Counted from the first letter of the stretch, positions 25,539 through 61,877 are shown. The stretch is DNA of 64,000 nucleotides from Candidatus Omnitrophota bacterium (GCA_003154195.1 PMCS01000008.1:79366-143365), one strand, 5' to 3'. The notes: generated by a model not told the origin, from the letters alone. Numbers and translations: made by a program.

Positions 25539-25550
25539 AATTAAAAACTA

Positions 25551-36164: not shown

Positions 36165-36187
36165 TGGAGAAAAACTTTCACCATATT

Positions 36188-36230: not shown

Positions 36231-36248
36231 TTCAATCTCTATACTTAC

Positions 36249-46558: not shown

Positions 46559-46885
46559 AAGTTTTAGCGATAATTATTTTATACCCGGCGAGACTCATTG
46601 CTTAGGGCAATGGGACTAAGCCTCAAACTCATTGCCCCCTTCGGGGCAATGAAACTTGGCCCGCCAAATACGGCGGGAGTTAGTTTCATTGATTCGGCTA
46701 TCCCCCTACGGGGATAGTTCAACTAAGCCCGGGGCACCAGGCAAGTTTCATTACGGCGAAGTCTCAAGCTCATTACCTGAAATCTGAAGTCGCGCTCTAA
46801 GCGCTCCCACGATTCCAGGTAATTCGACTACCGCCTCATTCTGCGCCCTTCGGGCTTGTATTCGGCGAAGTCTCATTAGATATCG
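46559..46885. repeat. tandem array of short hairpins ending in a family-3 element
   Basis: cattgcttagggcaatg; cattgccccttcggggcaatg; cccgccaaatacggcggg; ctatccccctacggggatag; gcgctctaagcgc. Then ggtaattcgactaccgcctc...cttcgggcttg...ggcgaagtctcattaga (46818-46882). Confidence 0.75.
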
Positions 46886-47589
46886 TCGCTGGCAAGATTT
46901 TTTTCGACGAATTCGATGATCGTATTCTGCTGTTCATTACTATTATTATAAAACTCAAGCCCCATCCCGGGAAATTCCAGAGGCTGGATGCTTTCATCGG
47001 TGACCCAGACGACTTTGGCCTCGGCATCAATAACCGGAGGTTTATGCGCGAAATGCATCCGGATGGAAAGCAGGTCGCCAGCCGGAAAAACTTTCGTGCC
47101 GATCATAAAAACTCCAATCGCGCTTAGATTTATAATATTACCCTTGAAAAAATCCTGGGAGGAAAATTTAAGCTTGTACTCAATAACGCTGTCTATTTCC
47201 AGCCTCTTGAATTTTCTTCGCAACTTTTTTTTGAGAGACCCGGGCGATTCTTTATCTTCACGAAGGCTGGAAAATGCCTCGTCTTCGCTATTATAGTATT
47301 CGAGTACCCGGTCAAGGCCGACTACAGAAAATAATCTTACGACATGGCCCGGTAAGTTATAAAGCTTCATTTTTCCGCCGTGGTTGAGCACATTCTTGTA
47401 AGCAACGGCAATCAGGGAGATACCGACATAATCCACTAAGTTGATACCGGCAAAATTACACAAAATGTCTTTGGATTTATTGGCGACCGACCAGCCCACG
47501 GCCTCGACAAACTCCGAAGCATTAATATCGATATTCCCCTCGGGGACAATAATAACCGCGCCTTCTCTTTCGCTTACGGTGATTTTCAT
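46876..47589 (-). CDS. STAS (anti-sigma-factor antagonist) plus PilZ fusion protein
   Basis: N-terminal SpoIIAA-like STAS (MKITVSEREGAVIIVPEGNID...YNLPGHVVRLFSVVGLDRVLEYY). C-terminal PilZ with RRKFKR (RxxxR) and NLSAIGVF (D/NxSxxG). The stop codon lies inside the family-3 element tail TCATTAGA. Confidence 0.7.
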   Translation of the reverse strand: MKITVSEREGAVIIVPEGNIDINASEFVEAVGWSVANKSKDILCNFAGINLVDYVGISLIAVAYKNVLNHGGKMKLYNLPGHVVRLFSVVGLDRVLEYYNSEDEAFSSLREDKESPGSLKKKLRRKFKRLEIDSVIEYKLKFSSQDFFKGNIINLSAIGVFMIGTKVFPAGDLLSIRMHFAHKPPVIDAEAKVVWVTDESIQPLEFPGMGLEFYNNSNEQQNTIIEFVEKNLASDDI

Positions 47590-48005
47590 TTCATTAAAAA
47601 AGAAAGAAAAAATAAAAGAGCAACGATTCCTACGCCGATAATTACCGCATCGCCCAGATTTATCTTCTTTTTGCTTCCGCTAACCACCCTGTCGGCGGCT
47701 GCCCCCTTAAGCGCAGAGTTTTCCGGCCCGGAAACCGCCGAACCTTGGGGAAGAATATCTGCCCGGGCGATTTCTTTATCCTTGGCCGGAGCGCTTACCG
47801 CCGCCGGGACAAACCCGTCATTGACCGCGCCGCTTTCTACGGCGGGGCTACTTTGCGCGTCAGCAAATTCATCCATCAACTGCCCGAGAAATTTACGGCA
47901 ATCGTTGCACACACAAAGATGCTCCTCAACAGCAGCCTGCTCTTCTTTAGGGGCAGTATGTTTTATATACGCCGGGATAATCTTTTTTATGCCTTCACAA
48001 TCCAT
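47586..48005 (-). CDS. zinc-finger (ZAS, HxxxCxxC) anti-sigma factor with C-terminal TM helix
   Basis: MDCEG...EEHLCVCNDCRKF, a linker, then the helix VIIGVGIVALLFFLSFLM. Overlaps the STAS-PilZ gene by 4 bp (ATGA). Confidence 0.65.
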   Translation of the reverse strand: MDCEGIKKIIPAYIKHTAPKEEQAAVEEHLCVCNDCRKFLGQLMDEFADAQSSPAVESGAVNDGFVPAAVSAPAKDKEIARADILPQGSAVSGPENSALKGAAADRVVSGSKKKINLGDAVIIGVGIVALLFFLSFLMK

Positions 48006-48021
48006 GGGGAAGCCTCAGAAA

Positions 48022-48103
48022 CCCTTCGCTTCGCTCAGGGTTAATTCGACTACGGCCTCACTCTACGCCCTTCGGGCTTGATTTCGGCCAAGTCTCATTA
48101 AAT
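48022..48103. repeat. family-3 element (GGTAATTCGACTACCGCCTC...GGCGAAGTCTCATTAAAT)
   Basis: cccttcgcttcgctcagggttaattcgactacggcctcactctacgcccttcgggcttgatttcggccaagtctcattaaat. Confidence 0.8.
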
Positions 48104-48170
48104 AAAAAAGGGGTAGAATTCAGTTTATTTCTGAAATTCCACCCCTCCTTTCCGCTTATTGAGCGGTAAA

Positions 48171-48335
48171 TCAGCTTTTTTTCTTTTTGGCGTTGAGCCT
48201 TCTTTCCTGAGAAGGCTTAGTGTAATACTGCCGGTCTTTGCACTCTTTTAAAATACCCTCGCGCTTACACTGCATCTTGAACACCCGCAATGCTTTTTCA
48301 AAATCTTCTCTTTTTTCGATTTTAACCTCGGCCAT
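48171..48335 (-). CDS. rpsU: 30S ribosomal protein S21
   Basis: Translates to MAEVKIEKREDFEKALRVFKMQCKREGILKECKDRQYYTKPSQERRLNAKKKKS (54 aa). AAGGAGGG Shine-Dalgarno 5 nt upstream. Absent from the ORF track (below 60 aa). Confidence 0.8.
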   Translation of the reverse strand: MAEVKIEKREDFEKALRVFKMQCKREGILKECKDRQYYTKPSQERRLNAKKKKS

Positions 48336-48418
48336 TGTCCCTCCTTAAATTATGCTAACTTTTTTTATTATAGCATATTTTCAAAATACCGCAAGCGGCT
48401 TTTCCGGATTAGTTGAAT

Positions 48419-50323
48419 CTATTGGATAAATTTAGTCTTTGACTCTCGAATCTGAATCTCGATGGCCATGATTTTATCATCGAGATCCTTTACGATAAGC
48501 TGGTAATAGCGCACAATATCCTCGCCATGCCGGGGGTTATCGACGATGCGCTGCTTAGCCCCTTTTTCAATCTCGAGTTTTTCTTTTTGCTTACGCAAAC
48601 TCTTTATCTTCTTTGCCAATTTCGCATTATGCTCTTCTTTATCCGTCCCCACGGTATTCTCAGCCGCCGGATTTAAGACTTGGCTGGCTTGCCCTTCTCC
48701 GGTTTTTTTGCCCGAAGCAGTTTTCGTTTTACCCTGCGTAAACGTCTGGCTCTTTTCAAGATAATAATCGAACCTACCCGGATACTTGCGCACCTGGCCG
48801 TCTTTTACTTCATATACACCATTGGCCAGCGACCGGACAAAATGGATATCATGGCTGATAAAAACAATCGTCCCCTCATAATCATTAAGCGCTTTTATCA
48901 AGGCCTCTACGGCATCAACGTCTAAATGCGTAGTCGGCTCATCCAGGAGTAAAAAATTCGGCGGGTTAATCAAAAGTTTCGCCAGAATCAACCGGCTCTT
49001 TTCCCCGCCGGAAAGAACTTTAACCTTCTTTTCCACATCGTCGCCCCGGAATAAAAATGCGCCTAAAATCGTGCGTAAATTTTCCGGGGGAAGCCGGCCG
49101 CCGGCGGCGGAATACGCTTCTTCCAGCACGGTATTATCGAAATTTAAAACATCCAGACGGGCTTGGGAAAAATAACCGATATCCACATTAACCCCGACGA
49201 CACGCTGGCCGGAATCAACAGGGATAACCCCGGCGAGAATCTTGAGCAGTGTGGACTTACCCGCGCCGTTTTCTCCCGCCAGTACGGCTTTTTCGCCGCG
49301 GCTGATCTCGAAATCGAAATCTTTGTAAACCGGCAAATCGCCGTAGGCCTTAGACATCTTATTTAATTTTATCACGTTATAGCCACTTTGTTTAGTCGCG
49401 GGGAACTTAAAGCTTTTGATGCTTTCACGGTAATCGGCCGGCACGATGATTTCTTCCATCATCTCCAGCTGCTTTTTCTTGGCGCGCACCTGGCTGGCCT
49501 TATTCGGTTGGGCGTGGAACCGGTCGACAAACTCCTGCAACTGCTTGCGCCGTTTTTCCTGTTCGCTGTGCTGGCGCAACAGGAAATCCCTTTTTTGATC
49601 CTGTAATTTATAGTATTCTTCGTAGTTGCCCTTGACCTTGCTGATAACACCGTTTTCCAAAACCAGCGTATAATTGGTAACATCATCGAGAAAATCGCGG
49701 TCGTGAGAAATTATAATAAAAGTGCCCTTATAATCCGCTAAATAATCCTTAAACCACAGCGCGGCGGATAAATCGAGGTAATTGGTAGGTTCATCCAACA
49801 AAAGTAAATCGTATTCAAAAGTCAAAAGGCGCGCCAGGAGCGTGCGCATCTGCCAACCGCCGGAAAGTTCAAGGATCGGCCGGCTAAAATCTCTCTGCTT
49901 AAAACCCAGGCCGGCTAAAATCTGCTTAGCCTTATACTCAAGCTGGGAATAGCCCAAACGGTCAAGCTCATGGATAATATCGGCGTAGCGGTGGCTTCCC
50001 GCCTGGCCCAACGCCTCAAGCTCTTCCTTTTCTTTCTTCAGGCGCATCATCGCCGGGTCACCCTCGGTAAGCTCCTGCAGCACCGTATGCGCCGACGCGA
50101 AACTTGATTCTTGCGCCAAATATCCGATACGGATATTTTTATATATCTGGACGCTCCCGTCGCTCGCCTCGGATTCGTCTAAAATAATACGAAACAAAGT
50201 AGATTTCCCCGCGCCGTTAGGCCCGACCAGTCCGACCTTCTCCCCCCGGCTGATATTAAGGGAAACCCGGGAGAATAAACTCCGGTCGCCGAAAGATTTA
50301 GATAAATTATTTATTGAAAGCAT
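48419..50323 (-). CDS. ABC-F family ATPase (Uup/EttA/YheS-like)
   Basis: Two ABC cassettes (GPNGAGKST / GENGAGKST with LSGG signatures) separated by a linker. A basic C-terminal tail. No TM domain. Confidence 0.9.
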   Translation of the reverse strand: MLSINNLSKSFGDRSLFSRVSLNISRGEKVGLVGPNGAGKSTLFRIILDESEASDGSVQIYKNIRIGYLAQESSFASAHTVLQELTEGDPAMMRLKKEKEELEALGQAGSHRYADIIHELDRLGYSQLEYKAKQILAGLGFKQRDFSRPILELSGGWQMRTLLARLLTFEYDLLLLDEPTNYLDLSAALWFKDYLADYKGTFIIISHDRDFLDDVTNYTLVLENGVISKVKGNYEEYYKLQDQKRDFLLRQHSEQEKRRKQLQEFVDRFHAQPNKASQVRAKKKQLEMMEEIIVPADYRESIKSFKFPATKQSGYNVIKLNKMSKAYGDLPVYKDFDFEISRGEKAVLAGENGAGKSTLLKILAGVIPVDSGQRVVGVNVDIGYFSQARLDVLNFDNTVLEEAYSAAGGRLPPENLRTILGAFLFRGDDVEKKVKVLSGGEKSRLILAKLLINPPNFLLLDEPTTHLDVDAVEALIKALNDYEGTIVFISHDIHFVRSLANGVYEVKDGQVRKYPGRFDYYLEKSQTFTQGKTKTASGKKTGEGQASQVLNPAAENTVGTDKEEHNAKLAKKIKSLRKQKEKLEIEKGAKQRIVDNPRHGEDIVRYYQLIVKDLDDKIMAIEIQIRESKTKFIQ

Positions 50324-50392
50324 AGGCAGATATTATAACAAAATAAGGTTGTTTTGGTAGGCTTTTCAATAAATCAGAAAATACATATTTTA

Positions 50393-51382
50393 TCAAACTT
50401 TCATCCGCCAGCAATTGTGGATATTTTTGTTACGATAGTCTTCGGGAATGGTTTTAGGGGTTAATTTTACGATATCTTTTACCGGCAGGCCTTCAAACTG
50501 CGGCTCGAACCGCTGGTGGTTGGCCGAAAAGAATAAATCAGAGCCGGGGCGCATGATCATTAAAACATCGCGCAACAGCTGCGGATGGTCGCGGTTAATA
50601 TCAAACGCCGCCTGTTCCCGGCTATCTTTATAAAAAGAAGGCGGATCGACAAACGCCAGGTCAAAACGCTCATTTTTACGATACGCTTGCGCCAGATAGC
50701 TCATCGCGTCCGCCTGAATCAGTTTATGCTTTGGCGCCCATAAACCGTTTAGTATCAAATTATCCTTCGCCCAATCGATATAAGTTGACGAACGGTCGAC
50801 CGTTACCGTAGTTTTAGCCCCGGCGGCGGCCGCGCAGGTAAACGCGCCGGTGTAGCCGAATAAATTCAGGAAATCTTTCCCCGGGGCGATCCCGGCGACA
50901 AGCACGCGCGTATCGCGATGGTCGGAGTACAACCCCGTATCGATAAAATCGTCTAAATTTACCCAGAAACGCAGATTACGCTCACGAACTTCGAAGCGTT
51001 CGCCGCGCGAATCGATTTTTTCATAACGCGGCCCATCCGCGACATTGGTATGCCGGCGTTTTAAATGGATTTTTTCCGGGGGCACGCCTAAAGCCCGGGC
51101 CGCGGCATTAGCCATTTGCGGCAGGTACTCTAAACTAGTCTGTATCCGCTCATACTCAGCGACCACGAGATGCCCCGCGTACCAATCGACAACGACGCGG
51201 ATATCCGGGCTGTCCCAATCGTAAAGCCGGAAACAATCGATGGACTGACGTTTAAATCTTTTACAAAAATGTCGAAATCTCTTTGCGACACTATTGGCTA
51301 AAACTTCTGCCTGGATTTTCGCCTTTTCCTGAGTCACGAAGCCTCTTGGTCTTATGTTTTGTTTTATTATTTTTTGAATCAT
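50393..51382 (-). CDS. rlmK: 23S rRNA m7G2069 methyltransferase RlmK-like (stand-alone)
   Basis: RLYDWDSPDIRVVVDWYAGHLVV, KDFLNLFGYTG, FDLAFVDPPSF and IHNCW closely match the RlmK domain of E. coli RlmKL. Confidence 0.8.
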   Translation of the reverse strand: MIQKIIKQNIRPRGFVTQEKAKIQAEVLANSVAKRFRHFCKRFKRQSIDCFRLYDWDSPDIRVVVDWYAGHLVVAEYERIQTSLEYLPQMANAAARALGVPPEKIHLKRRHTNVADGPRYEKIDSRGERFEVRERNLRFWVNLDDFIDTGLYSDHRDTRVLVAGIAPGKDFLNLFGYTGAFTCAAAAGAKTTVTVDRSSTYIDWAKDNLILNGLWAPKHKLIQADAMSYLAQAYRKNERFDLAFVDPPSFYKDSREQAAFDINRDHPQLLRDVLMIMRPGSDLFFSANHQRFEPQFEGLPVKDIVKLTPKTIPEDYRNKNIHNCWRMKV

Positions 51383-51486
51383 AGGTACAATGCCTCCGGC
51401 GGTGCCCTGCGGGCGGCGTGTGCTATATGGCGGATTGGTTTTGCGCTTTATAGGTGGAAAAGAAAAAAATAAAACTTAAACTAAAT

Positions 51487-51807
51487 TCAATTACTTATTT
51501 TTTTACGCTTGCTCGATTTTTTACCCATCAATTTCTCTTTCTGCTTACGCTTCAATCGCTTAATCCTTATCTCTTCCAAAAACGCGTTTTTAAAATAGCG
51601 GTATTTCTTGCACCACGCTAATTTCACCGGCAGACGGGTTCGCGTATATTTTGCGCCCTTGCCGGCGCGATGTTTGGCGACTCTTTGTTTTAGATTCGGC
51701 GTATAACCGGTATAGTAAGTATTATCGCAGCAACGCAGGATATATACCCAGAATTTGCCGTAACGCTTTAGCTTTTTCCGCTTTTTTTTAATCTTTTTAT
51801 CGCACAC
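51487..51807 (-). CDS. GIY-YIG nuclease family protein (UPF0213)
   Basis: [38 protein letters not shown] is a GIY-YIG motif. Lys-rich tails. Confidence 0.7.
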
Positions 51808-51862
51808 AGGATATTATGGCAAATCGACAACTTTTATTTTATTTTCCATGGCAGGTATAATT

Positions 51863-52444
51863 TTATCGAAAAATCGCTAAAATTCCAAACAAAATGAATA
51901 TTCCGGCGGATGCTATTTTGATTGCCTTTTCCGGCAGTCTCTTATGAGCGGCAATGCCAATAGCTATCGCTAAACCGTCGGCAAGGACCATCCCCATGGT
52001 CGAGCCCAGCCATACGCCGATAAAATCAATCAACGAATGGTATTGCGCCGCCAGGGATATCGTGGCCAGTTGAGTCTTATCGCCAAGTTCCGCCAAAAAA
52101 AACGCGATTGCCACCGTCATAATCGGGCCGAATTTAGCCTTGCCCTTAGCAGCATCATCGTTTTTGTCGCCCCTGAGCGTCCAGATGCCGAAACCGATAA
52201 AAGAAATCCCGATGATTATTTTTAAATAATTTAAAGGGATAATACCGTTAACAAAAACACCGATCCCGGCAGAGAATAAATGTACCAGCGCCGTAGCGAT
52301 AAAAACACCAGCGATGACTTTTGACGGTTTATATTTCGTGGCAAAGGAAAGCGCGACCAACTGGGTCTTATCGCCCATCTCGGCAACGGCAATTAATAAA
52401 AAAGAAGAGAAAAAACTAAACATAACCCTCCAGTTTAGACCCAC
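51863..52444 (-). CDS. UPF0016/GDT1 family cation (Mn2+/Ca2+) transporter
   Basis: Two E-x-G-D-K-T-Q motifs (EMGDKTQ, ELGDKTQ) in a duplicated 3-TM architecture. Confidence 0.8.
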   Translation of the reverse strand: MGLNWRVMFSFFSSFLLIAVAEMGDKTQLVALSFATKYKPSKVIAGVFIATALVHLFSAGIGVFVNGIIPLNYLKIIIGISFIGFGIWTLRGDKNDDAAKGKAKFGPIMTVAIAFFLAELGDKTQLATISLAAQYHSLIDFIGVWLGSTMGMVLADGLAIAIGIAAHKRLPEKAIKIASAGIFILFGILAIFR

Positions 52445-52494
52445 ATACCCTCAGAAAGCAGTGAATTACCACCTACAAAGTCGGTGGTTTAGTA

Positions 52495-53232: not shown

Positions 53233-53306
53233 TAGGCTATCTCTCCCTTAAAATTGTATTGCTTTTATGCCAACGGAAAAGAAAACACGGGGTATTATTT
53301 TCCAGA

Positions 53307-53516
53307 TTACCGGGGTAAATGTTTATTCTCGTGAGCGCTGCTAAGGGGAAGTTTATCTAAAATCTCCCGCTCTAAGCTGATAAGCAGATGAGCCCTACCC
53401 CAGCGAAGCTGTACCTCAGGGGTAAGGCTGTCGAGTTTTTCTCGGGCAAGCTTTTGCGCGTAACGCAACCGCTCGGTTTCATTTTTGAATTTAGGAATTT
53501 TTTCTTTCTTTTTCAT
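53307..53516 (-). CDS. small Lys-rich hypothetical protein
   Basis: 69-aa ORF. A perfect 16-bp-stem hairpin lies 5 nt from its ATG and leaves no room for a Shine-Dalgarno sequence, so the gene is uncertain. Confidence 0.3.
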   Translation of the reverse strand: MKKKEKIPKFKNETERLRYAQKLAREKLDSLTPEVQLRWGRAHLLISLEREILDKLPLSSAHENKHLPR

Positions 53517-53520
53517 AATA

Positions 53521-53562
53521 TAATTTTAAAGGCCGGTAAAAACTTCCCGGCCTTTAAAATTA
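53521..53562. terminator. perfect 16-bp-stem hairpin (bidirectional terminator candidate)
   Basis: taattttaaaggccgg taaaaacttc ccggcctttaaaatta, downstream of the MBL-fold gene. Confidence 0.55.
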
Positions 53563-53587
53563 TATATGCTTTTTTGCTTTTTTCAAG

Positions 53588-54445: not shown

Positions 54446-54462
54446 AATCAATCCCCAATCCC

Positions 54463-54996: not shown

Positions 54997-55073
54997 CAGA
55001 GCTAAATTATAAGTGATGCGTGATAAATTATTAATTTCTTGTCCATGTCCACCACTGAAAATAACCTAAATAG

Positions 55074-56975
55074 TCATTTCCGAAGGAAATTTTCTTGCGC
55101 TCTTTTTTTACGCGGCAAAGGATGGGATTTACTATGCTCCGGCTGAAAATCTTTGAGTAACCCGGCGGCGCCTAATTTTTGCAGCGCTTCTTTCACGAAT
55201 TGTTTATTTTTAGGATTTCTGTATTGCAGTAAGGCGCGCTGGTATTTACGCTCCTTAAATTCTCTGGCGACATAAACTTTCTGTCCGGTTAAGGGATGTT
55301 TACCGGTATGATACATGCAACTCGCCAGGCACATCGGTAAAGGCATAAAATCCTGGATCTGTTCAGAACTGATGCGCTTTTTCTTAACATAAAGAGCCAA
55401 GGCTAAAGCATCCTTAAGTGTGGCGCCGGGGTGGCCGACAATAAAATAGTTCACCAGAAAACATTTTTTATCCATCTTCTTATTGAAATGTTCGAACTTT
55501 TTTAAAAAATCTTCGTAAATATCCAACCCCGGTTTATTCATCAGAGAAAGAACATCACCGCAAATATGTTCCGGCGCCACCTTCAGGTAACCGCTGATAT
55601 GATGGCGCATGGTTTGCGCTAAATATTCATCGGCATCGCTGTCGGTCAGCAAATCATACCGGAAACCGCTTCCGATAAACACATGTTTTACCCCGGGCAA
55701 CTGTTTGATTTTTTGATACAAGCGTAAACTTTCCTTATAGCCTAGTTTTAGATTTTTGCATTTACGCGGGACAAGGCAATGGTTTTCACAGAAATCGCCG
55801 TTATACCAAAGCGGACAGGACGCATGGTAAAGATTTGCCGTAGGGCCGCCGACATCGGTTATTGTGCCTCTAAAATATGTTTGCCGCGTAAGCCCGGTTA
55901 CTTCCCGCAAAATAGAATTTTCACTGCGCGACTGGACGATCCTCCCCTGGTGCAGCGACAAAGAACAAAAACTGCACTCTCCCGGGCAACCGCGGTGCGA
56001 AACAATAGAAAATCTGACCGTCTCCAGCGCCGGCACGCCTCCCTCCCGGTCATAAACCGGATGCCAGTTGCGCGCATAAGGCAGTTCATAAACTTTATCC
56101 AATTCTTGCGTATTTAAAGGTAATGCCGGGGGAAGCTGGATCACAAAACGGTCGGCGTGTTTTTGTGCCAAGGGCTTAGCGCGGGAAGGGCTTTGCTGAC
56201 GATAAACCAGGCTGAAAGACTGGTTGAATTTATCTTTATCAGCCGCAGTTTCTTCAAAAGACGGTAAAGCGATAAAATCGCTTAAAAAATCAATGGTTCT
56301 ACGGTTAATCACCGTACCCTTTATATCGTTTAAAGAATCAGGCGCTTCGCCTTTATTCAACCGGCCGGCAATTTCCACGATTGGGCGCTCCGCCATGCCA
56401 TAGACTAAAATATCGGCCTTAGCGTCCACAAGAATGGAGCGCCTGGCTTTATCATCCCAATAGTCATAGTGCGCCAACCGGCGCAAACTTGCCTCGATGC
56501 CGCCTAAAACTATCGGGATTTTGCCGAAAATCTGGCGCACTCGATTAGCATAAACGATTAAAGGCCGGTCCGGCCGCTTGCCGGATTTCGCTCCCGGCGA
56601 ATAATCATCCGATTGCCTGGGCTTTTTGTTGGAAGTATAATTGGCGACCATTGAATCCACATTGCCGCTGGTGATACCGAAAAAAAGGCGGGGACGGCCG
56701 AGGGCCTGAAAATCTTTTGTTTCGCGCCAATCCGGTTGGGCGATTATGCCTACTTTATAGCCGGCATTTTCCAAGACCCGGGAAATAACCGCGGCGCCAA
56801 AAGAAGGATGGTCGATATAAGCGTCGCCGGTAATAATAATTATATCGCATTGCTGCCAACGGCGCTGTTTCAGGTCGGATTGGTTGACGGGAAGAAAATC
56901 ACAAGGTAGAGAACTATCACTAACCTTATCGGTGGTTTTAAATACTGCCATAGAACTGGCCGGTGGATTTGACAT
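55074..56975 (-). CDS. ygiQ: YgiQ-family (UPF0313) radical SAM protein
   Basis: DIIIITGDAYIDHPSFGAAVISRVL... and CPGECSFC radical-SAM cysteines. The start is refined to MSNPP at 56975; the ORF track's longer N-terminus reads through a repeat element. Confidence 0.85.
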   Translation of the reverse strand: MSNPPASSMAVFKTTDKVSDSSLPCDFLPVNQSDLKQRRWQQCDIIIITGDAYIDHPSFGAAVISRVLENAGYKVGIIAQPDWRETKDFQALGRPRLFFGITSGNVDSMVANYTSNKKPRQSDDYSPGAKSGKRPDRPLIVYANRVRQIFGKIPIVLGGIEASLRRLAHYDYWDDKARRSILVDAKADILVYGMAERPIVEIAGRLNKGEAPDSLNDIKGTVINRRTIDFLSDFIALPSFEETAADKDKFNQSFSLVYRQQSPSRAKPLAQKHADRFVIQLPPALPLNTQELDKVYELPYARNWHPVYDREGGVPALETVRFSIVSHRGCPGECSFCSLSLHQGRIVQSRSENSILREVTGLTRQTYFRGTITDVGGPTANLYHASCPLWYNGDFCENHCLVPRKCKNLKLGYKESLRLYQKIKQLPGVKHVFIGSGFRYDLLTDSDADEYLAQTMRHHISGYLKVAPEHICGDVLSLMNKPGLDIYEDFLKKFEHFNKKMDKKCFLVNYFIVGHPGATLKDALALALYVKKKRISSEQIQDFMPLPMCLASCMYHTGKHPLTGQKVYVAREFKERKYQRALLQYRNPKNKQFVKEALQKLGAAGLLKDFQPEHSKSHPLPRKKRAQENFLRK

Positions 56976-56983
56976 ACCCATTA

Positions 56984-57058
56984 CCCCCTTCGGGGGTAAT
57001 TCGACTACCGTCTCGTCCGGCGCGCTTTGCGCTTGGACTCGACGAAGTCTCATTAAAT
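56984..57058. repeat. family-3 element
   Basis: taccccttcgggggtaattcgactaccgtctcgtccggcgcgctttgcgcttggactcgacgaagtctcattaaat. Its 3' TCATTAAAT contains the greA stop. Its 5' hairpin sits 8 nt upstream of the ygiQ ATG. Confidence 0.8.
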
Positions 57059-57523
57059 TGATATACCCACAACTTTATACTTAAGTACTCCGGCAGGGAC
57101 CTCTACTTCTACCGTATCTCCTACCGCTTTGCCCAACAGCGCTTTTCCGACAGGAGAAGTAACGGAAATGGAGCCGTCGGCGGCGTTTGCCTCATCAGAA
57201 CCTACCAGTTTATATTCCGTTTCCTCCCCGGTATCTAAATCGGCTATTTTAACTTTATTACCCAGATAAGCTTTGTCGCCGGCAGCAACCGGGTGCTCGA
57301 TCAGCTCGGCTCGCGTAAGCCGGTCTTCTAAATCTTTTATTCTTTTTTCGTTGTGCGCGAACGCTTCTTTGGCCGCGTCATATTCGGCGTTTTCGCTTAA
57401 ATCGCCCAGAGAACGCGCGTGCGACAGAGCCGCGGCGATTTCCCTGCGCTTTTTATTCTTCAGTTCCTCTAATTCCTTAATTAATTTATCATGCCCTTCT
57501 TTAGTTAAATAAATCCTTTCCAT
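57053..57523 (-). CDS. greA: transcription elongation factor GreA
   Basis: MERIYLTKEGHDKLIKELEELKNKKRREIAAALSHARSLGDLSENAEYDAAKE... typical of GreA. Confidence 0.9.
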   Translation of the reverse strand: MERIYLTKEGHDKLIKELEELKNKKRREIAAALSHARSLGDLSENAEYDAAKEAFAHNEKRIKDLEDRLTRAELIEHPVAAGDKAYLGNKVKIADLDTGEETEYKLVGSDEANAADGSISVTSPVGKALLGKAVGDTVEVEVPAGVLKYKVVGISI

Positions 57524-57544
57524 ATAAGCCTCCGAAATTATTCT

Positions 57545-57910
57545 TCATTTGACCTTGAATTTAATCACGATATCGGCGGCTTCATCCTTTCCGCCGGCCG
57601 CGCCATCCGCTCCCAAGCTGATAAGCCTTACGTTATCAGCGCTATCGACCTGATAGATTATCGGCCTGCCCCATTTATCTTTTATATCACCGACCGAACA
57701 TTCTATCCCGCCTGCGCCGATCATCTCGCGCAAAGACACCGGCGGCTTTTTGTTTAAAACCGTATAGGCCAAAACGCAATCCTTCAACTTTTTCATCCCC
57801 CGATAAGTCTTCCGGATCGAAAAAGCGTCAAAAATAGAAAAAATAAGATAGGTAAAAAAAACCACGACAAAAAGATACATCTTTATTTGACGCCGGTTTG
57901 GCCTATTCAT
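57545..57910 (-). CDS. GspG-C-domain pseudopilin-like protein with non-canonical N-terminus
   Basis: C-terminus KDKWGRPIIYQVDSADNVRLISLGADGAAGGKDEAADIV matches the T2SS GspG signature. The N-terminal helix MYLFVVVFFTYLIFSIF lacks the G-F/E5 prepilin cleavage motif. Confidence 0.5.
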   Translation of the reverse strand: MNRPNRRQIKMYLFVVVFFTYLIFSIFDAFSIRKTYRGMKKLKDCVLAYTVLNKKPPVSLREMIGAGGIECSVGDIKDKWGRPIIYQVDSADNVRLISLGADGAAGGKDEAADIVIKFKVK

Positions 57911-57926
57911 CGCACGCTTCCCTCTC

Positions 57927-60900
57927 CTATGGTTGAGAACCCGGCGCTTTCGGCGTGCCGGTTAAACCATTAATATCCACGGGCTTCCTGAATAAAAAAT
58001 TACCCGTCGTAACTTTCTGCACGCTGCCGTCTTGTTTGTTTAATTGCACATAATACTTCTTCCCACCTTTTTTAACGCCGACACTCCACGATAAATCGGC
58101 ATCTTTAACCGAGATAACTTCTCCGCCGATCGCCAACCCCGCAAAATGCGCGGCGCCGTCATGGGTAAGCCTCTCTTTAATAAATTCTTGCTTTTGGGAA
58201 TCTACTTTTATTATCAGATAACCGAGAGACGAAAGAAATTGGAATTCCCATCCATCATGCCAGGGGTTTGTCTCTTCCCCCGTTATGACCGTTATTTTAT
58301 TATTGGCTAAAATCTTTTGAGCTTCCTGATAACAATAATCTTTAAGCAAACGCAGGGTTAACTTAACCGAAGCATCTTCTTCTATCTCGGCAAGCGCGCT
58401 CCATTTTTTTGAAGCAAGGCTGATTATCCATCGGCCGTTCTTAAAATCTTTCCGCACCGGTAAAAAATATTTTTCTCCGCTCTCCTTCGCCGCCGCGGCG
58501 ACAGCTAAATCATCCGCCTCCGGCGCCGAAAGGTACTTCTTCAGAGTTACCTTTTCCGATTCATCTTCAACAACCAGAATCATCCCTTTAGGGTAATAAA
58601 AATTCCACATATTATTTTGCTGCCAGATTGCCAGAGGTTCTTCGCTCGCGTTTTCTTTCGCGATTTGCTTAACCCTTGTTTCGCTGATGGTTTTCTTCTG
58701 GTTCACTACTTTCCCCGATTTTTTATTCACCTTAAAAGTATAATTATAATCGGCAGTATTATAATTCAGGATATATAAAAAACCGCGCACTTCGATATTT
58801 TCTTCTTTTAAATCGAGATCGGGAAATATTTTTTTTATTTCCGTTATCGCCTCCTGCTTGGAAAAGGCGGGAAATTCCGCTTTTAATTCGCGCCGCAGGA
58901 TATCGAAATAAAAGTCGATAATCTTTTTGTTATAATCAATGGCGATTTTCCAGGCAACCGCCACATTCTTTTCAATAAGATTAACCGCTACCTCCTTAGG
59001 ATGAATATTCATCTCCCTGCCCACGTGGCTTTTAACGTCGATCTCGGAAAGCCTGTTCGCCGTAGGCAGAAGAACCGCTACCTTTTCCCAGAGCTGAGCC
59101 GAACGACGATTATCTTCGCGAGCCAAAACAATCTCCACCAGCTTGTCCTGCGCTTCTTTTTCTAATTTAAGCGGAGCGTCGAAGCGGCAGAATTTGCCCT
59201 CATCTTTCACCCGGTCAACTACATTGCCGAGAGAATCCCGTTTCAGGGTGTTAATCTTCCAGTCAGCCCGGTGCACGCGCGTTATTAAAAGCTGTACGTT
59301 TCTAAACCGCGCCTCATCGGCGGGTATCCCTTCTTTTGCCAACTCCGCAAGGCAGAGTTTTATGACTTCTTCCGGCTCAATGTCAAGAATAAACGGCTCG
59401 CCCCTGGCAATTCCGAAATTAAAACCTTCAAAGATTGTTTCGGGGAGTAAAACCGTCGTTCTCGCTTGCTCGCCTTCCTGGCCGGTTGCCTCTTTTCCGC
59501 TCAGGTAAAAAGTTTTATAATTGCCCTGCACCTGGCGGCTCATGACCATGGAAATAAGAGACGGCGGTAAAATACGGTGGAAACTGGCAACCCTTCTCGT
59601 CTTTACCAAAATTACCTCTCCGGAACGCAGTTTAATCAAAAATTGCTCGTTATCAAGAATATCCAAAAATGTGGCCAGTTTATCGAATTTTACTCCTGAC
59701 TGAAAACCGTTCTCTAAAATCTTCTCTTTTTCTTTATTGGTGGAAAGTTTGCCGATAACCCAGGTATCGCAATCATTGATCCCTTTAAAATCGATATCTT
59801 CTAAATACTGGGTAGCTAATACGCAGCAAACGCCGGAATTCTTGCTTTCTCTTAATAATAATTCGATCGCCGGCCTGGCTACAAAATGAAACGGATCGGT
59901 AGATAAAAATGACCGCTTTGAGCCGATCTCATCGATATAAAATATAAGGCGCGGCCGATCGCTGGGGCCCTGTTTTTTCATCCAGCAATAAATCGAATAA
60001 GCAACCTGGGAAATAACCAGGTAACGGTCTTCAAAAGTTTCCAGCTCGGAAAGATTAATGATGTTGATAGGTGTTTTATCGAACCTTTGGGAAAATAAAT
60101 CAATATCCAAGGGGACGCCGTCATACCAAATACGCTCGGCGCCGTTCAAGTGTTCGCGTAATTTATCCGCTAAGAGTTTGCGCACGGGCTCCGGTATGTA
60201 TTCATCGACCGGCGCGTCCCCCACCTTCGCCAACGGCAGGTGATCGATCAAATCAATAAAGCGTGCCAAACCTTTAATACCATGAATCTCAATACCATTC
60301 AACCAGCTATAAAGAATCAATTCCGATAAAAAATTCTTCTCCCGGTCTTTCTGATTTATTTCTTCGTTAACGTACAGACGGCCGATAAGAGCGCTTATCA
60401 GAAAATCGATTGCCGTAAAAATATTTTCCCGCTCTTTATCGTAAAGCTCTTTTATATTTTCGGGAGCCGGAGGCAGTAAAGAAATCGCCAAAGGTATGCC
60501 TGATTTAGAACGCGGGGTAAAGACAGCGACCTCAACCGTATCCTTTAATCGTTTAACATAATCCTCGGTCAAGCCAAATCTTCCCAGGTGCCTCATTTGG
60601 TTATCGAATTCCTGTCTTGCCCGGTCTCGCCAGTCTTCACTTTGTCCGTATTCTTCGGAAAAAAATTCGAAATATTCCGGCGAGGTTTTATCGAATAAAA
60701 GGCACAGAGAGGAAAGGTCGCCTTTAAGGTCAATGATAATCGAGGGCACTTCCTTTTGCGCTGCTTCTTCGATAATGCTTTTGGCAAAAACAGTCTTACC
60801 ACAAGCCGGTGACCCGCAGATAAAAACATGGCCCATGAGATTCCCCATGGGCAGGAAAAATTTTGAAAGCAGCCCTCCGCCGCTTTCCAGCGAAATGCGA

Positions 60901-61013
60901 TTACCCAAAAATAAGCTTTCTAAACGTAAATCGTCCGACATATTTTCAATGAGGCTTATCCCGCCGCATTTTGGCGGGATGCAGCCGAATTGGCCCGGCA
61001 CTAATTTTGTCAC
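57927..61013 (-). CDS. large P-loop NTPase, DUF87 / HerA-VirB4-like core with about 550-aa C-terminal region of unknown function
   Basis: Walker A ICGSPACGKT, Walker-B-like LIFYIDEIG and an ATQ sensor motif (CCVLATQYLEDID). 1028 aa. The ORF-track start is a GTG; possible internal ATG starts at 60941 and 60848. Confidence 0.5.
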   Translation of the reverse strand: MTKLVPGQFGCIPPKCGGISLIENMSDDLRLESLFLGNRISLESGGGLLSKFFLPMGNLMGHVFICGSPACGKTVFAKSIIEEAAQKEVPSIIIDLKGDLSSLCLLFDKTSPEYFEFFSEEYGQSEDWRDRARQEFDNQMRHLGRFGLTEDYVKRLKDTVEVAVFTPRSKSGIPLAISLLPPAPENIKELYDKERENIFTAIDFLISALIGRLYVNEEINQKDREKNFLSELILYSWLNGIEIHGIKGLARFIDLIDHLPLAKVGDAPVDEYIPEPVRKLLADKLREHLNGAERIWYDGVPLDIDLFSQRFDKTPINIINLSELETFEDRYLVISQVAYSIYCWMKKQGPSDRPRLIFYIDEIGSKRSFLSTDPFHFVARPAIELLLRESKNSGVCCVLATQYLEDIDFKGINDCDTWVIGKLSTNKEKEKILENGFQSGVKFDKLATFLDILDNEQFLIKLRSGEVILVKTRRVASFHRILPPSLISMVMSRQVQGNYKTFYLSGKEATGQEGEQARTTVLLPETIFEGFNFGIARGEPFILDIEPEEVIKLCLAELAKEGIPADEARFRNVQLLITRVHRADWKINTLKRDSLGNVVDRVKDEGKFCRFDAPLKLEKEAQDKLVEIVLAREDNRRSAQLWEKVAVLLPTANRLSEIDVKSHVGREMNIHPKEVAVNLIEKNVAVAWKIAIDYNKKIIDFYFDILRRELKAEFPAFSKQEAITEIKKIFPDLDLKEENIEVRGFLYILNYNTADYNYTFKVNKKSGKVVNQKKTISETRVKQIAKENASEEPLAIWQQNNMWNFYYPKGMILVVEDESEKVTLKKYLSAPEADDLAVAAAAKESGEKYFLPVRKDFKNGRWIISLASKKWSALAEIEEDASVKLTLRLLKDYCYQEAQKILANNKITVITGEETNPWHDGWEFQFLSSLGYLIIKVDSQKQEFIKERLTHDGAAHFAGLAIGGEVISVKDADLSWSVGVKKGGKKYYVQLNKQDGSVQKVTTGNFLFRKPVDINGLTGTPKAPGSQP

Positions 61014-61039
61014 AGCAAAATCAGTGCCGGGTTATACTC

Positions 61040-61298
61040 CGCAAAAAATACTGCCATCCGCTTGCGCGGATGGGAAAAAGGTAGATTACAGAAAAACAAC
61101 CAAGAAACAATCACCAAACAATATCTAATCTCATAGTGGTTATTTTAGCACTTTCGGTATTATAGACAAGATTATAAATCTTAACGCTTAAGTTTATTTT
61201 TTGCGCCGCGAAAAAAGACCCTTCGCTTCGCTCAGGGTAATTCGACTACCGCCTCGTCCGGCGCGCTTCGCGCTTGGACCCGGCGAAGTCTCATTAAA
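61040..61298. repeat. repeat cluster: half AT hairpin, CCATCCGC hairpin, AT hairpin and a family-3 element
   Basis: gccatccgcttgcgcggatggg (61053-61074); ttttttgcgccgcgaaaaaa (61197-61216); cccttcgcttcgctcagggtaattcgactaccgcctcgtccggcgcgcttcgcgcttggacccggcgaagtctcattaaat (61217-61298). Confidence 0.8.
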
Positions 61299-61877
61299 TT
61301 TTTTTAAAAGTTTTTTAAAAACCCTGCCGGGAAATCCCACGACGTTATCGTAGTCTCCCTTAATAGATTTTATAAACTGGCCCCTTAAATCCTGAATCGC
61401 GTAGCTGCCGGCTTTATCGCGGAAATCGCCGCGGCCGAGATAATCGGTTATTTCGTCAGCCTTAAGCTTTTTAAAATTAACTTCCGTCTTCGCATAATCC
61501 GTGACTAATTTTTTATCGCGCCGCCGGCACAGGGCAAGCCCGGTGATAACTTCGTGAGTATTCCCCGATAAAATCGAAAGCATCTTTTTCCCGTCCCGGT
61601 AATTCCGCGGCTTGCCTAAAATCTTATTCTTAAAAACAACAATGGTATCGGCGCCGGCCACAATCAATCGGGGAAATTTTTCAGCTACCGCTTGCGCCTT
61701 TAATGTCGCTGCCAAAACCGCAAATGAAACCGGGTTTTTTTCTTTAATCGCACCTTCATCGATATCGGCAGGGTAAATAATAAAGTCTCTGACGATTTTT
61801 TTAAGGAGATTTATCCGGCGCGGCGAGCGGGAGGCAAGGACAATTTTAATATTTTTATAATTCTTGCGGGGTTTCAT
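61194..61877 (-). CDS. maf: Maf-like nucleoside triphosphate pyrophosphatase with repeat-encoded C-terminal extension
   Basis: IVLASRSPRR...GADTIVV...GKP...; Maf fold. The last 33 or so residues (ETSPGPSAKRAGRGGSRITLSEAKGLFSRRKK) are translated from the family-3 element plus an AT hairpin. Confidence 0.85.
   Translation of the reverse strand: MKPRKNYKNIKIVLASRSPRRINLLKKIVRDFIIYPADIDEGAIKEKNPVSFAVLAATLKAQAVAEKFPRLIVAGADTIVVFKNKILGKPRNYRDGKKMLSILSGNTHEVITGLALCRRRDKKLVTDYAKTEVNFKKLKADEITDYLGRGDFRDKAGSYAIQDLRGQFIKSIKGDYDNVVGFPGRVFKKLLKKFNETSPGPSAKRAGRGGSRITLSEAKGLFSRRKK

Follow-up and report, generated by a model that had tools for sequence, protein, structure and literature searches.

Hairpin-forming repeat modules flush with gene ends in a Candidatus Omnitrophota genome

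Do the short repeats that lie between the genes of a Candidatus Omnitrophota bacterium supply stop codons, C-terminal tails and possibly ribosome-binding sites to their neighbours, as the initial annotation of this DNA had proposed? The whole stretch analysed, hereafter the window, is 64,000 nt long (GCA_003154195.1 PMCS01000008.1:79366-143365), and its short intergenic spacers are built largely as a mosaic of small hairpin-forming repeat modules. One of these, R1 (the "type-4" element), is 59 nt long, reads TAATGAGACTT–variable hairpin–TAGTCGAATTA on the gene strand, and occurs in about 10 copies. The usual order of modules is R1, then a CCCC..GGGG hairpin, often followed by an A/T hairpin of the form ATTA-T6-GC-loop-GC-A6-TAAT; whichever way an A/T hairpin is oriented, its 5' arm consists of the T-run and its 3' arm of the A-run.

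R1 forms a single long imperfect hairpin, with an outer stem (TAAT/ATTA), a 2x2 internal loop (GA/GA), a stem of GACT/AGTC and a variable inner stem-loop. The pattern TAATGARACTT-N15-45-TAGTYGAAYTA has seven matches in the window against 0.00 expected, and an R1 covariance model finds nine matches there (E = 4e-15 to 2e-5) plus a weak one (E = 0.013). In 55 copies drawn from many genomes, paired cells make up 90.9%, compared with 72.8% for shuffles and no more than 49% when partners are slid; covariation scores 0.457 versus 0.133, and all four Watson-Crick pair types are represented in the inner stem. The P2 pair also covaries, being G-C in 75 cases, A-T in 26 and mismatched in only six. The better-folding strand is the one with the GA/GA loop and GAA triloops (73 versus 21 for the variable part). 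When the two ends, TAATGAGACTT and TAATTCGACTA, are compared, 8 of 11 positions match and the GA/TC asymmetry is conserved; the TA at both ends may be either a TA duplication or the element's own bases. A search of Rfam 15 with the window and 16 R1-carrying loci gave no match at the gathering score, only chance-level matches (E up to 5). R1 belongs to a covarying hairpin family that is apparently undescribed and is present in several phyla: we found it in many Omnitrophota and in metagenome-assembled genomes (MAGs) labelled Planctomycetia, Syntrophaceae/Smithella and Bacteroidota.

R1 copies on the minus strand of the window lie at 46820-46878 (53.7 bits, E = 2.8e-14), 48042-48100 (56.4 bits, E = 3.7e-15), 56997-57055 (55.8 bits, E = 5.9e-15) and 61238-61296 (53.9 bits, E = 2.3e-14), with a diverged copy, AAATGAGATTT...TAGTCGAATTT, at 7125-7183 (36 bits, E = 1.7e-8). 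The copy at 48042 follows the S21 gene and its T-run and overlaps no ORF; a second hairpin module (48006-48041) then abuts the ATG of the zf-HC2 gene at 48005. Between the STAS-PilZ and TPR lipoprotein genes, R1 is followed by a mosaic of hairpin modules (46560-46819, minus strand) that includes a hairpin, TCATTGCCCC-CTTC-GGGGCAATGA (46629-46652), and a short R1 copy (46715-46753) lying inside a degenerate outer one. Nested copies also occur at a locus of another genome (L125), and a further locus (L054) has a tandem array with a 118-nt period. Copies in the opposite orientation, on the plus strand, lie shortly upstream of start codons. The one at 43664-43722 (46.6 bits) is preceded by the hairpin HP2, an A/T module and a CATCCGC hairpin, and 5 nt separate its TCATTA end from the ATG (43658) of a GroES-like gene. 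A short one at 24621-24659 (41.4 bits), with the same order of neighbouring modules, precedes the ATG of a small winged-helix ORF by 18 nt, and a diverged one at 26688-26742 (36.7 bits, E = 1e-8) precedes that of an HMGL-like gene (26673) by 14 nt, with GAGGAG between.

Seven of the approximately 55 genes in the window have a stop codon inside a repeat module. For three of them the first in-frame stop is R1's own TAA or TGA. The gene greA (57053-57523, minus strand) ends ATT TAA TGA, its TAA (57055-57053) lying inside TCATTAAAT, and the STAS-PilZ gene (46876-47589) ends ATC TAA TGA, with its TAA at 46878-46876. Both stops had been attributed to the tail of the element, and both attributions hold, except that the tail at STAS-PilZ reads TCATTAGAT rather than TCATTAAAT. 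The third gene, encoding a dCMP/cytidine deaminase (7178-7639), stops at the TGA of the diverged copy at 7125-7183. The other four stops fall within A/T-rich 12-bp hairpins. PurQ (18455-19366) ends ...NYFLLRKK*, and its final residues (...YFLLRKK*) and stop are encoded by a perfect 12-bp hairpin (18454-18480), as first annotated; the KDPG aldolase gene stops at the terminal TAG of a hairpin at 24903-24927; the 5' arm of a hairpin at 39797-39827 holds the TAA of an HlyD-like gene, and a second A/T hairpin there (39767-39793) ends 2 nt before the ATG of a MacB-like gene; and the stop of Maf is the terminal TAA (61196-61194) of an imperfect hairpin. In other genomes, copies flush with a stop read TAA|TAATGA (L117, L118) or share their TAA with the gene (L120, L124, L045, L077). 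Seven of eight stop-overlapping R1 copies are in the TAA frame (p = 0.0026 against an expectation of one third). The TAATGA end is thus often a stop codon because R1 repeats sit flush against gene ends.

GreA has 156 residues in the window and 155-160 in 117 of the 119 other homologues listed (162 and 166 in the remaining two), every named one being from Omnitrophota. The GreA proteins of the four nearest relatives, which have no R1 match in 20 kb, finish at the same residue with a TGA or TAA stop, and the end of the window's GreA also matches that of Escherichia coli. There is therefore no shift of the protein boundary at GreA: its orthologues without R1 have an identical C-terminus, an outcome that the initial annotation had itself named as evidence against its claim. 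The STAS-PilZ protein stops 8 residues past the PilZ domain, and PurQ gains a few residues at most. The CPBP protease is of normal length, with about 5 residues inserted; a perfect 14-bp A/T hairpin (61958-61988) inside its ORF, 43 nt from the 3' end, encodes IIFYCVKNN, and since 14 further codons follow before the stop at 61915, the hairpin does not, as had been suggested, encode the final residues.

The exception is Maf (61194-61877, minus strand). Its reading frame runs AAA AAA TTT AAT GAG ... into R1, one frame off that of greA-type stops, and continues through three repeat modules: the R1 copy at 61238, whose open second frame is translated as NETSPGPSAKRAGRGGSRI..., an HP2-type module, CCCTGAGCGAAGCGAAGGG (61237-61219), and the imperfect A/T hairpin (61218-61193) that contains the stop. 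The latter two modules span 61193-61237. The ORF ends ...GLFSRRKK*. Pfam Maf covers residues 11-194 of 227, so the tail comprises 33 residues, exactly as first described. Most homologues have 184-194 residues; none of the 119 others listed aligns past approximately 86% of the query, that is, past the Maf domain, and a relative with a 59% identical YgiQ encoded nearby has a Maf that lacks the tail and ends ...LLKQFKRTLEADTR*. Judged from sequence, Maf is the only clearly lengthened protein, and its tail would be made if the ORF is translated as annotated. The broader proposal that the elements reshape gene boundaries is not supported in general, given what is seen at GreA, STAS-PilZ, PurQ and CPBP; the initial interpretation is only partly borne out.

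The idea of a ribosome-binding site contributed to ygiQ is unsupported. HP2, a perfect 9-bp hairpin (ATTACCCCC-TTC-GGGGGTAAT, 56980-57000), shares ATTA with the outer stem of the R1 copy that follows greA; GGGGGTAAT lies at 57000-56992 on the minus strand. The GGGGG arm proposed as the Shine-Dalgarno sequence of ygiQ is, as stated, 8 nt before the ATG at 56975. In the predicted minimum-energy fold, however, the G-run is paired in the 9-bp stem, and the greA-ygiQ spacer as a whole folds with z = -4.85 relative to shuffled sequence. The start of ygiQ is itself uncertain. Gene callers differ (659 or 635 aa), and a mechanically called long ORF starts at an ATG (57053-57051) that overlaps the greA stop and crosses R1 in the third frame. 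One YgiQ orthologue begins only 3 residues before the conserved FLP motif, and the ATG at 56975 may therefore not be the ygiQ start. In other genomes, Shine-Dalgarno sequences abut R1-family copies at their other end, with R1 in the other orientation.

We propose, with a probability of roughly 0.6, that the modules are REP/BIME- or MITE-like elements with lineage-specific gain and loss, which persist flush against the ends of ORFs. Such modules would survive only where genes stay unbroken, that is, at positions flush with ORF ends. Where R1 lands directly on or after a TAA stop, the protein would be unchanged even though the stop is formally R1's (GreA and STAS-PilZ, and the dCMP deaminase via TGA), because the conserved 5' end of R1 is TAATGA. 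The same applies to the A/T hairpins, since AAATAA closes their 3' arm. In the window copies that are entered by an ORF, the other two frames happen to be open, so that a shift of phase by one base lets the ORF run through R1, the second hairpin and the A/T hairpin; at Maf, the ORF continues in this way to the TAA of the A/T hairpin, 33 residues further on. The distribution of R1 among relatives fits gain and loss of an element of this kind. R1 is missing after greA in the four relatives and before the GroES-like gene in six; the six GroES-like orthologue loci (105 kb) have one strong R1 match compared with approximately 10 in the 64-kb window, and R1 density differs about tenfold or more between Omnitrophota genomes. 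Both presence at orthologous loci and copy number therefore vary, as they do for mobile repeats, among relatives that are distant (53-74% protein identity), so that loss of R1 is indistinguishable from gain. The contigs of the species itself are all 99.8-100% identical, with no polymorphic empty site among them; hence, we infer mobility only from where R1 occurs and where it is missing in distant relatives. Effects of the transcribed hairpins on mRNA stability or termination are likewise conjectural.

Some properties of R1 sit less comfortably with a transposable repeat. No target-site duplication was found apart from the ambiguous TA at both ends, and no associated transposase was seen in the 64-kb window or in scattered stretches of up to approximately 20 kb of other genomes. 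The ends are not true inverted repeats, and the conserved GA/GA mismatch is at odds with recognition of double-stranded terminal repeats by a transposase. Within one genome, the stems of R1 copies differ by compensatory changes, a sign that the copies are old and selected for structure and not the product of recent transposition. Tentatively, the modules could instead be functional structure cassettes, made of RNA or single-stranded DNA, at the boundaries of genes, which they would mark; their overlap with stops and starts would then be function rather than side effect. In one orientation, a hairpin just 5' of the Shine-Dalgarno sequence would stabilise the mRNA 5' end, serve as a processing site or insulate translation; in the other, a stop in the foot of the hairpin would serve a 3' stabiliser or a modulator of termination or ribosome rescue, a role that has been proposed for E. 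coli REPs near stop codons. Placement in other genomes is one argument for this possibility. R1 there is usually in the opposite orientation and 10-12 nt (mode) upstream of the start codons of diverse housekeeping genes. Between co-directional genes, the two orientations are represented by 33 and 13 copies (p = 0.0045). Of the 33 copies in the common orientation, 23 have a start codon no more than 18 nt away, mostly with AGGAGG between, and the Shine-Dalgarno sequence directly abuts TCATTA. Divergent genomes repeatedly have R1 upstream of recA, rpsK and the gene for L25, one copy separates rpsM from rpsK, which normally share one operon, and some copies are flush with the ends of tRNA genes. 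The recurrence at recA, rpsK and L25 fits a functional leader element better than a purely selfish repeat, and the strong bias in orientation and position, the covarying stems, the flanks that are fixed across phyla and the strong folding of the spacers point the same way.

Against such cassettes stand the absences at the GroES-like and greA loci, the differences in density, the occurrence of both orientations within one genome and the lack of an Rfam family; moreover, in the common orientation the better-folding strand of R1 is antisense to the downstream gene. In addition, no intrinsic terminator (a G+C-rich hairpin with a U-tract) coincides with an R1 copy or A/T hairpin in the window, and a scan for sigma-70 cassettes, defined as -35 and -10 hexamers 16-18 nt apart with A at -11 and T at -7, found no hexamer match on the window's R1 copies. 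Some Planctomycetia-labelled MAGs have a palindrome, CCCTTGACATC..GATGTCAAGGG, beside R1 that sets TTGACA 16 nt from TTTAAT, although with no A at -11; R1 copies from Omnitrophota have no -35-like motif.

The long Maf invites a further explanation, namely that the R1 hairpin stimulates a dnaX-type -1 frameshift, or RNA polymerase slippage, such that most ribosomes read ATT TAA to give a canonical-length Maf ending ...LLKKI and the 227-aa form is minor. A dnaX-type site combines an in-phase X XXY YYZ heptamer with a spacer of 5-9 nt, a stable downstream structure and a defined -1 product, and at the level of sequence all of these features are present at Maf. An A7 run (61299-61305, minus strand), in phase as A AAA AAA, lies 8 nt upstream of the strong P2-P3 helix of an R1 copy that folds as a whole at -29.4 kcal/mol; the -1 frame then reads ATT TAA TGA, reaching R1's tandem stops after one codon, and the resulting end, ...KKLLKKI, agrees in position with that of homologues (...KKLLKxF plus 0-8 residues). 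Nevertheless, we consider frameshifting improbable. Lysine-rich ends (KKLLK) are ancestral in the Maf family, which could make the A-run a coincidence; in organisms studied to date, ribosomes shift less readily on A AAA AAA than on A AAA AAG; and no other R1 copy has a slippery site upstream. Least probable of all is that mechanical ORF calling produced the overlaps and that a homopolymer error in the assembly produced the Maf extension: the extension does hinge on one base of the A7 run, and gene callers do disagree over the ygiQ start, but an identical 227-aa Maf is encoded on nine contigs with records in NCBI, JGI and ENA, independent ENA, JGI and Logan assemblies are 99.8-100% identical to the window here, and the stops of GreA and STAS-PilZ are independent of how genes are called.

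If R1 is a REP/BIME- or MITE-like element, as we favour, it differs from each of the systems already described. Like the REP/BIME elements of Enterobacteria and the GTAG/CGTC-tagged REP superfamilies, which have been reported in Planctomycetes too (Di Nocera et al., 2013; PMC3733652), R1 is a short, multi-copy imperfect palindrome that combines with other motifs as mosaics and lies mostly between co-directional genes, where it is often probably transcribed, and sometimes inside genes. A REP of the RAYT system is a palindrome of 20-40 bp with an unpaired GTAG or CGTC on one side, in a genome that contains a RAYT (Y1 transposase) gene flanked by such repeats. R1 has no such tag: TAGTC stands 3' of the variable stem with its AGTC paired to GACT, and the base before TAG can be T, G, C or A, being G in some copies only. 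R1 differs further in its conserved paired flanks, which are the same across phyla, and its GA/GA internal loop, and no RAYT gene was seen with it in the small part of each genome covered.

R1 resembles integron attC sites in general design only. In attC sites the conserved ends pair, the central spacer stays unpaired, and a second short helix that contains unpaired bases leads to a variable terminal stem-loop; in both, sequence is free while structure is kept, and the asymmetry implies that one folded strand matters. An attC site is defined by R''/R' cores (RYYYAAC ... GTTRRRY), an integron integrase and a cassette array. R1 ends in TAATGA...GAATTA and lacks these cores, no integrase was seen with it, and it flanks greA, maf, ygiQ, groES and similar housekeeping genes rather than cassettes; it is not an attC site. 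Neisseria Correia elements (CREE/NEMIS) are also small, gene-proximal and hairpin-forming, with inverted ends beginning TA; they are co-transcribed with genes, are processed as hairpins by RNase III and can alter the expression of their neighbours. Their length of 100-155 bp, 26-bp true terminal repeats, TA duplication, IHF site and confinement to one genus are not found for R1. Rickettsia palindromic elements, repeats of 100-150 bp tolerated in frame within protein-coding genes, add internal peptide segments to proteins, which recalls the A/T hairpin in the CPBP gene and the translated modules in Maf, although coding overlap in the window is confined to gene ends.

The effect on neighbouring genes described here has a precedent in Coxiella burnetii, in which QMITE1 and QMITE2 overlap the 3' ends of functional genes by 1-50 bp, mostly with no change in protein length, and enhC of the Dugway strain has gained 33 residues through an indel that joined the ORF to the repeat (PMC5896051). 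Both families are hairpin repeats that overlap gene 3' ends with the same effect. QMITEs have no sequence relationship to R1 and a host from a different phylum; they also have terminal inverted repeats and direct repeats, and no start-codon-proximal orientation bias has been reported for them. A MITE is defined by true terminal inverted repeats, duplication of its target site and the existence of full-length insertion sequences related to it. Repeats that overlap the 3' ends of genes are already known, the Coxiella QMITEs being an example, whereas the R1 family itself seems to be undescribed.

The 59-nt hairpin repeat R1 runs from a TAATGA end to a GAATTA end on the gene (minus) strand, which carries nearly all genes in the window, and there reads TAATGAGACTT - 37 nt - TAGTCGAATTA. 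Four minus-strand copies (46820-46878, 48042-48100, 56997-57055 and 61238-61296) lie within the region covered by the initial annotation, which had claimed that repeat elements supply stop codons, C-terminal tails and possibly ribosome binding sites to flanking genes. The R1 pattern matched seven times in the window, compared to 0.00 times in shuffled sequence. A covariance model built from 55 copies gave ten matches, including a diverged one at 7125-7183 that provides the TGA stop of a dCMP deaminase gene, and three copies on the other strand, at 43664, 24621 and 26688. In a census of perfect hairpins in the window, A/T hairpins, which are a separate module type, held the stop codons of a KDPG aldolase gene (24903) and an HlyD-like gene (39823), and others lay 0-15 nt from start codons. 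The stops of 7 of the ~55 window genes fall within a repeat module; the presence of repeats at gene ends is thus real and beyond chance.

Nearly every R1 copy has a second hairpin after it, of the form (A/T)YCCC...GGGR, which we refer to as HP2; in the window, an A/T module and a CATCCGC hairpin often come next, in fixed order. Nested R1 copies are found at 46700-46790 of the window and in one stretch from elsewhere (L125). Hairpins of the type (C)CATCCGC-loop-GCGGATGG, usually adjoining an A/T hairpin, are located at 6395-6420, 10730-10745, 24700-24720, 29756-29778, 43760-43782 and 61054-61073, and the last of these precedes a T-run and received a terminator-like score. Two A/T hairpins (16495-16519 and 39767-39793) reach to within 0-2 nt of the ATGs of the PurM-like and MacB-like genes, leaving no intervening Shine-Dalgarno sequence; a GAAGG immediately 5' of the hairpin of the PurM-like gene would be brought near the ATG by folding.

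Repeats of other kinds are also present in the window. About eight tandem copies of the 16-nt unit CCTTGGCGAAGGCAGA occupy 63617-63760. In intergenic regions at 25540-25720, 3155-3330, 8915-9100 and 63790-63825, short GGTTAGGG/GGTTAAGG-like repeats stand opposite CCCTTAACC-like ones on the same strand, forming large inverted arrays that resemble telomere repeats. Further intergenic families, with motifs such as CCACCAAGGCACCAAG/GGTGCCTTGGTG and CACAGATT/CACGGATAAACACGGAT, are found at 19370-19600, 31955-32075, 4115-4360 and 35800-36250. Lastly, a long A/T-flanked palindrome at 53517-53566 (AAAGGCCGG...CCGGCCTTT within ATATAATTTTAAAGG...), between a metallo-beta-lactamase-fold gene and a small ORF, has sub-threshold Rfam matches to miRNA precursors and is probably a bidirectional terminator.

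The greA gene ends ATA TCA ATT TAA TGA, and its stop codon (TAA at 57055-57053) does lie inside the tail of R1, as initially annotated, but the gene boundary has not moved. Residues 1-154 of the 156-aa GreA align with residues 1-155 of the 158-aa E. coli protein, and 117 of the 119 other homologues listed are 155-160 aa long (the other two are 162 and 166 aa; the named ones are all from Omnitrophota). In the four nearest relatives (65-72% identity), the protein terminates at the same residue (VPAGxLKYKVxxxx*), with TGA or TAA as the stop codon, and a search with filters off detected no R1 in 20 kb in these four. Because element-free relatives end at the same residue, R1 sits exactly where the ancestral greA stop lay, and it "supplies" the stop in a formal sense only. 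The STAS-PilZ gene, which extends 8 residues past the PilZ domain, ends GAT ATC TAA TGA; its TAA (46878-46876) comes from the R1 tail, although on the plus strand this tail reads TCATTAGAT rather than TCATTAAAT, as had been stated.

PurQ ends NYFLLRKK*, with the stop inside a perfect 12-bp A/T hairpin (18454-18480), but this takes the protein only ~4 residues beyond the end of the PurL alignment, relative to PurL's own end. In the CPBP protease gene, the hairpin at 61958-61988 encodes IIFYCVKNN; contrary to the original description, these are not the final residues, with 14 codons following, and the hairpin accounts for some five residues inserted close to where the last helix ends, in a 547-aa protein whose single-domain homologues are 522-547 aa long. 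The proposed ribosome binding site of ygiQ, GGGGGTAAT, is indeed 8 nt before the ATG at 56975, but its G-run is paired in a 9-bp hairpin of the predicted minimum-energy fold of the spacer (-41.5 kcal/mol, z = -4.85), and the position of the start is ambiguous. Gene callers give a YgiQ of 659 or 635 aa, and because only three residues precede the FLP motif (residue 53 of the long window ORF) in a 59%-identical orthologue, possible starts are 56981, 56975 and sites further downstream.

Our search for R1 outside the window used one genome per GTDB species and two 11-mers spaced 15-45 nt apart, and returned at least 104 stretches; by our own arithmetic, ~17 chance matches are expected in the 596 Gb scanned. 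The matches listed are mostly from Omnitrophota MAGs, with several from MAGs labelled Planctomycetia, Smithella/Syntrophaceae or Bacteroidota, and a few, in Pelagibacter, Methanobrevibacter and similar organisms, that have no fold. Real R1 copies share an architecture of helices P1 to P3, from the outer stem inward: P1 (TAAT/ATTA), a GA/GA internal loop, P2 (GACT/AGTC), a U-U mismatch, and a variable P3 that is often tipped by an inner GCC-GAA-GGC. In the 55-copy alignment, 90.9% of cells are paired, compared to 72.8% after shuffling (0 of 500 shuffles reach the observed value) and at most 49% with slid partners; the covariation score is 0.457 versus 0.133, and all four Watson-Crick pair types occur at P3 positions. 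The variable P2 base covaries (G-C 75, A-T 26, mismatched 6), and the P3 base differs among window copies (CGCC/GGCG, CGTC/GACG, GGCC/GGCC). The paired ends (TAAT, GA-GA loop, GACT) are conserved at every base across Omnitrophota and the MAGs labelled Planctomycetia, Syntrophaceae/Smithella and Bacteroidota; the inner stem is free to vary, by compensation. In its variable part, R1 folds better as the TAATGA strand (73 versus 21); G-U counts did not differ significantly between strands (45 versus 33, p = 0.21). Rfam searches of the window and 16 element-carrying loci, at gathering and permissive thresholds, gave no match, and scans for terminator-like or sigma-70-like sequences gave none on R1. 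A full-text literature search for four 11-mers returned only chance matches in unrelated eukaryotic and other papers, and a search on Omnitrophota repeats returned nothing specific.

Further arrangements of R1 occur outside the window. One Omnitrophota MAG has four tandem units of R1, HP2 and spacer with a 118-nt period (L054 1115-1524). R1 is flush with the ends of tRNA genes at L024 3863-3994, L099 6304-6432, L016 7517-7647 and L056 3018-3086, with the L056 copy starting at the TAA of the apparent anticodon loop of a truncated tRNA 5' half; a tRNA/tmRNA search of the window itself found none. One Fusobacteriaceae MAG has a 37-nt version, TAATGAGACTTAGGCTTTTAAGCCTTTAGTCGAATTA, within a longer conserved repeat (ATACAAATAAGATTTTTATTGGTTT ... 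TGGAGTGGCGAGGA...) on many contigs (L012, L017, L047, L060, L066, L068, L071, L072, L081, L092, L102, L108), with no Rfam match there. In Planctomycetia-labelled MAGs (L061, L076, L095, L097, L100, L101), the module adjoining R1, and sometimes also the R1 inner stem, is a palindrome, CCCTTGACA...TGTCAAGGG, that sets a consensus TTGACA 16 nt from TTTAAT.

Among the matches listed that lie between co-directional genes, the TAATGA end, read on the opposite strand as TCATTA, faces the downstream start in 33 copies, compared to 13 in the greA-type orientation (p = 0.0045). For 23 of these 33, a start codon is within 18 nt, most often at 10-12 nt, and the sequence in between is usually AGGAGG directly abutting TCATTA (start-proximal GTDB loci L007-L110, e.g. 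L079 2506-2561, L067 1162-1218 and L061 1763-1828). The downstream genes are unrelated housekeeping genes: those for RecA, S11 (rpsK) and L25 each occur twice, with each pair from divergent genomes, alongside S19 (rpsS), SOD (sodA) and RuvB; one copy lies between rpsM and rpsK. Copies in the greA-type orientation are within 5 nt of the upstream stop in 4 of the 13 cases listed. A scan of JGI metagenomes for the window's R1 subtype gave 17 stretches, several from peat/bog samples that host the species (Ga0302322 also gave L006). In these, R1 directly follows a TAA (TAA|TAATGA: L117, L118), has its TAA in common with an ORF (L120, L124), or, on the other strand, is 1-18 nt from the starts of NadE-like, PriA-like and other genes. 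Where the 5' end of R1 overlaps an upstream ORF, the ORF is in the TAA frame in seven of eight copies (p = 0.0026), which means either that the target includes TAA or that selection acts against copies adding tails in the other frames. An apparent second case of read-through (L118 and L125, frame b, 156 codons) was rejected, since the translation is not protein-like and the TAA of the real gene directly precedes the element.

R1 was found upstream of the GroES-like gene at none of six orthologue loci (68-74% identity), which together cover 105 kb and contain only one strong R1 match, 13 nt before a start; the 64-kb window contains about ten. Taken with the greA comparison, these loci show R1 to be present in a lineage-specific way and in very different copy numbers, as is usual for a proliferating repeat, although the relatives are too distant for single insertion events to be seen. 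We propose, with a probability of roughly 60%, that R1 and the other modules are REP/BIME- or MITE-like palindromes that would survive only when flush with gene ends. Gene-end effects would arise because R1 has tandem stops (TAA TGA) in a single frame and A/T hairpins end in AAATAA; Maf and the long ygiQ ORF enter their R1 copies in other frames, which there contain no stop. As the main alternative, the modules could serve as functional structures in leaders or trailers. This would fit the start-proximal bias of R1 and the recurrence of the same target genes, but not the absence of R1 at orthologous loci, and we consider it possible though on balance unlikely. We are slightly more doubtful that R1 is an undescribed, structured multi-phylum element, representing either a new class of leader/intercistronic cis-element or an attC-like hairpin of folded single-stranded DNA for a putative recombinase, which as a side effect may supply the hairpin and stop of a dnaX-like frameshift at maf.

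R1 differs from described elements in several respects: it fails the GTAG/CGTC tag test for REPs, has no attC cores, is not an intrinsic terminator, and has no Rfam model. Four other identities were not adopted. The terminator reading was rejected for lack of a U-tract. For the promoter reading, which we did not take up, TTGACA-N16-TTTAAT is found in some Planctomycetia-labelled copies and absent from Omnitrophota copies, and the -10-like hexamer has no A at -11. The GA/GA loop recalls hammerhead and K-turn motifs, but its symmetry and the lack of matching core motifs led us to drop both. As for a phage origin, seven IMG/VR pattern matches include no R1-type hairpin except a weak one (L131, -7.8 kcal/mol); at least some, including three near-identical copies, are apparently in coding sequence, and we took them as chance matches that serve as a negative control.

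The claim of a 33-residue, repeat-encoded extension of Maf is borne out. The reading frame runs through R1 (TTA AAA AAA TTT AAT GAG ACT ...), the CCCTGAGCGAAGCGAAGGG module and an imperfect A/T hairpin whose TAA (61196-61194) is the stop, giving the predicted tail NETSPGPSAKRAGRGGSRITLSEAKGLFSRRKK. The Pfam Maf match covers residues 11-194 of 227, and none of the 119 other homologues listed, which are mostly 184-194 aa long, aligns past ~86% of the query, i.e. beyond the Maf domain; those aligned end ...KKLLKxF plus 0-8 residues. A relative with partly the same neighbour genes, among them a nearby YgiQ of 59% identity, lacks the element, and its Maf is 194 aa long and ends LLKQFKRTLEADTR*. The end of maf shows all cis features of a dnaX-type -1 frameshift site: the heptamer A AAA AAA in phase (61299-61305, minus strand), an 8-nt spacer to the stable P2-P3 helix in an R1 copy that folds at -29.4 kcal/mol as a whole, and a -1 frame that reads ATT TAA TGA. 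Frameshifting here would restore a Maf of canonical length, but the arrangement may be coincidental, and we regard such frameshifting as very improbable. It is unlikely that the extension is an assembly artefact, because independent assemblies agree: identical GreA proteins are encoded on contigs, up to 280 kb long, from several ENA, JGI and Logan metagenome samples, and six retrieved contigs of the species are 99.8-100% identical to the window over the shared region. Source-named homologues of Maf, GreA and the GroES-like protein are mostly from "Candidatus Omnitrophica/Omnitrophota"; given that the nearest Maf from another organism is only 59% identical, the species has no close sequenced relative.

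Effects of small palindromic repeats on gene ends have been described before. In Coxiella, QMITE copies share 1-50 bp with the 3' ends of functional genes, whose products keep their size, and enhC gained 33 residues through an indel that joined it to a QMITE2 copy (PMC5896051); REPs inside or beside genes are known from many phyla (PMC3733652). Our analysis extends this known effect to a new phylum, and Maf provides a natural example of how a tail originates, from a single-base difference in phase relative to an element with stops in only one frame. In such genomes, automatic gene calling cannot be relied on at boundaries rich in repeats, as illustrated by the two lengths called for YgiQ (659 and 635 aa), the several ORF starts that run into hairpins, and the 33 residues added to Maf; C-terminal "domains" like the Maf tail should be recognised as repeat-derived. 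The part of the finding that is worth following up is the R1 family, with its flanks conserved across phyla and its start-proximal position. If the cross-phylum flanks, covarying stem and, in other genomes, fixed start-side position reflect function, R1 would be a testable new cis-element in poorly known phyla.
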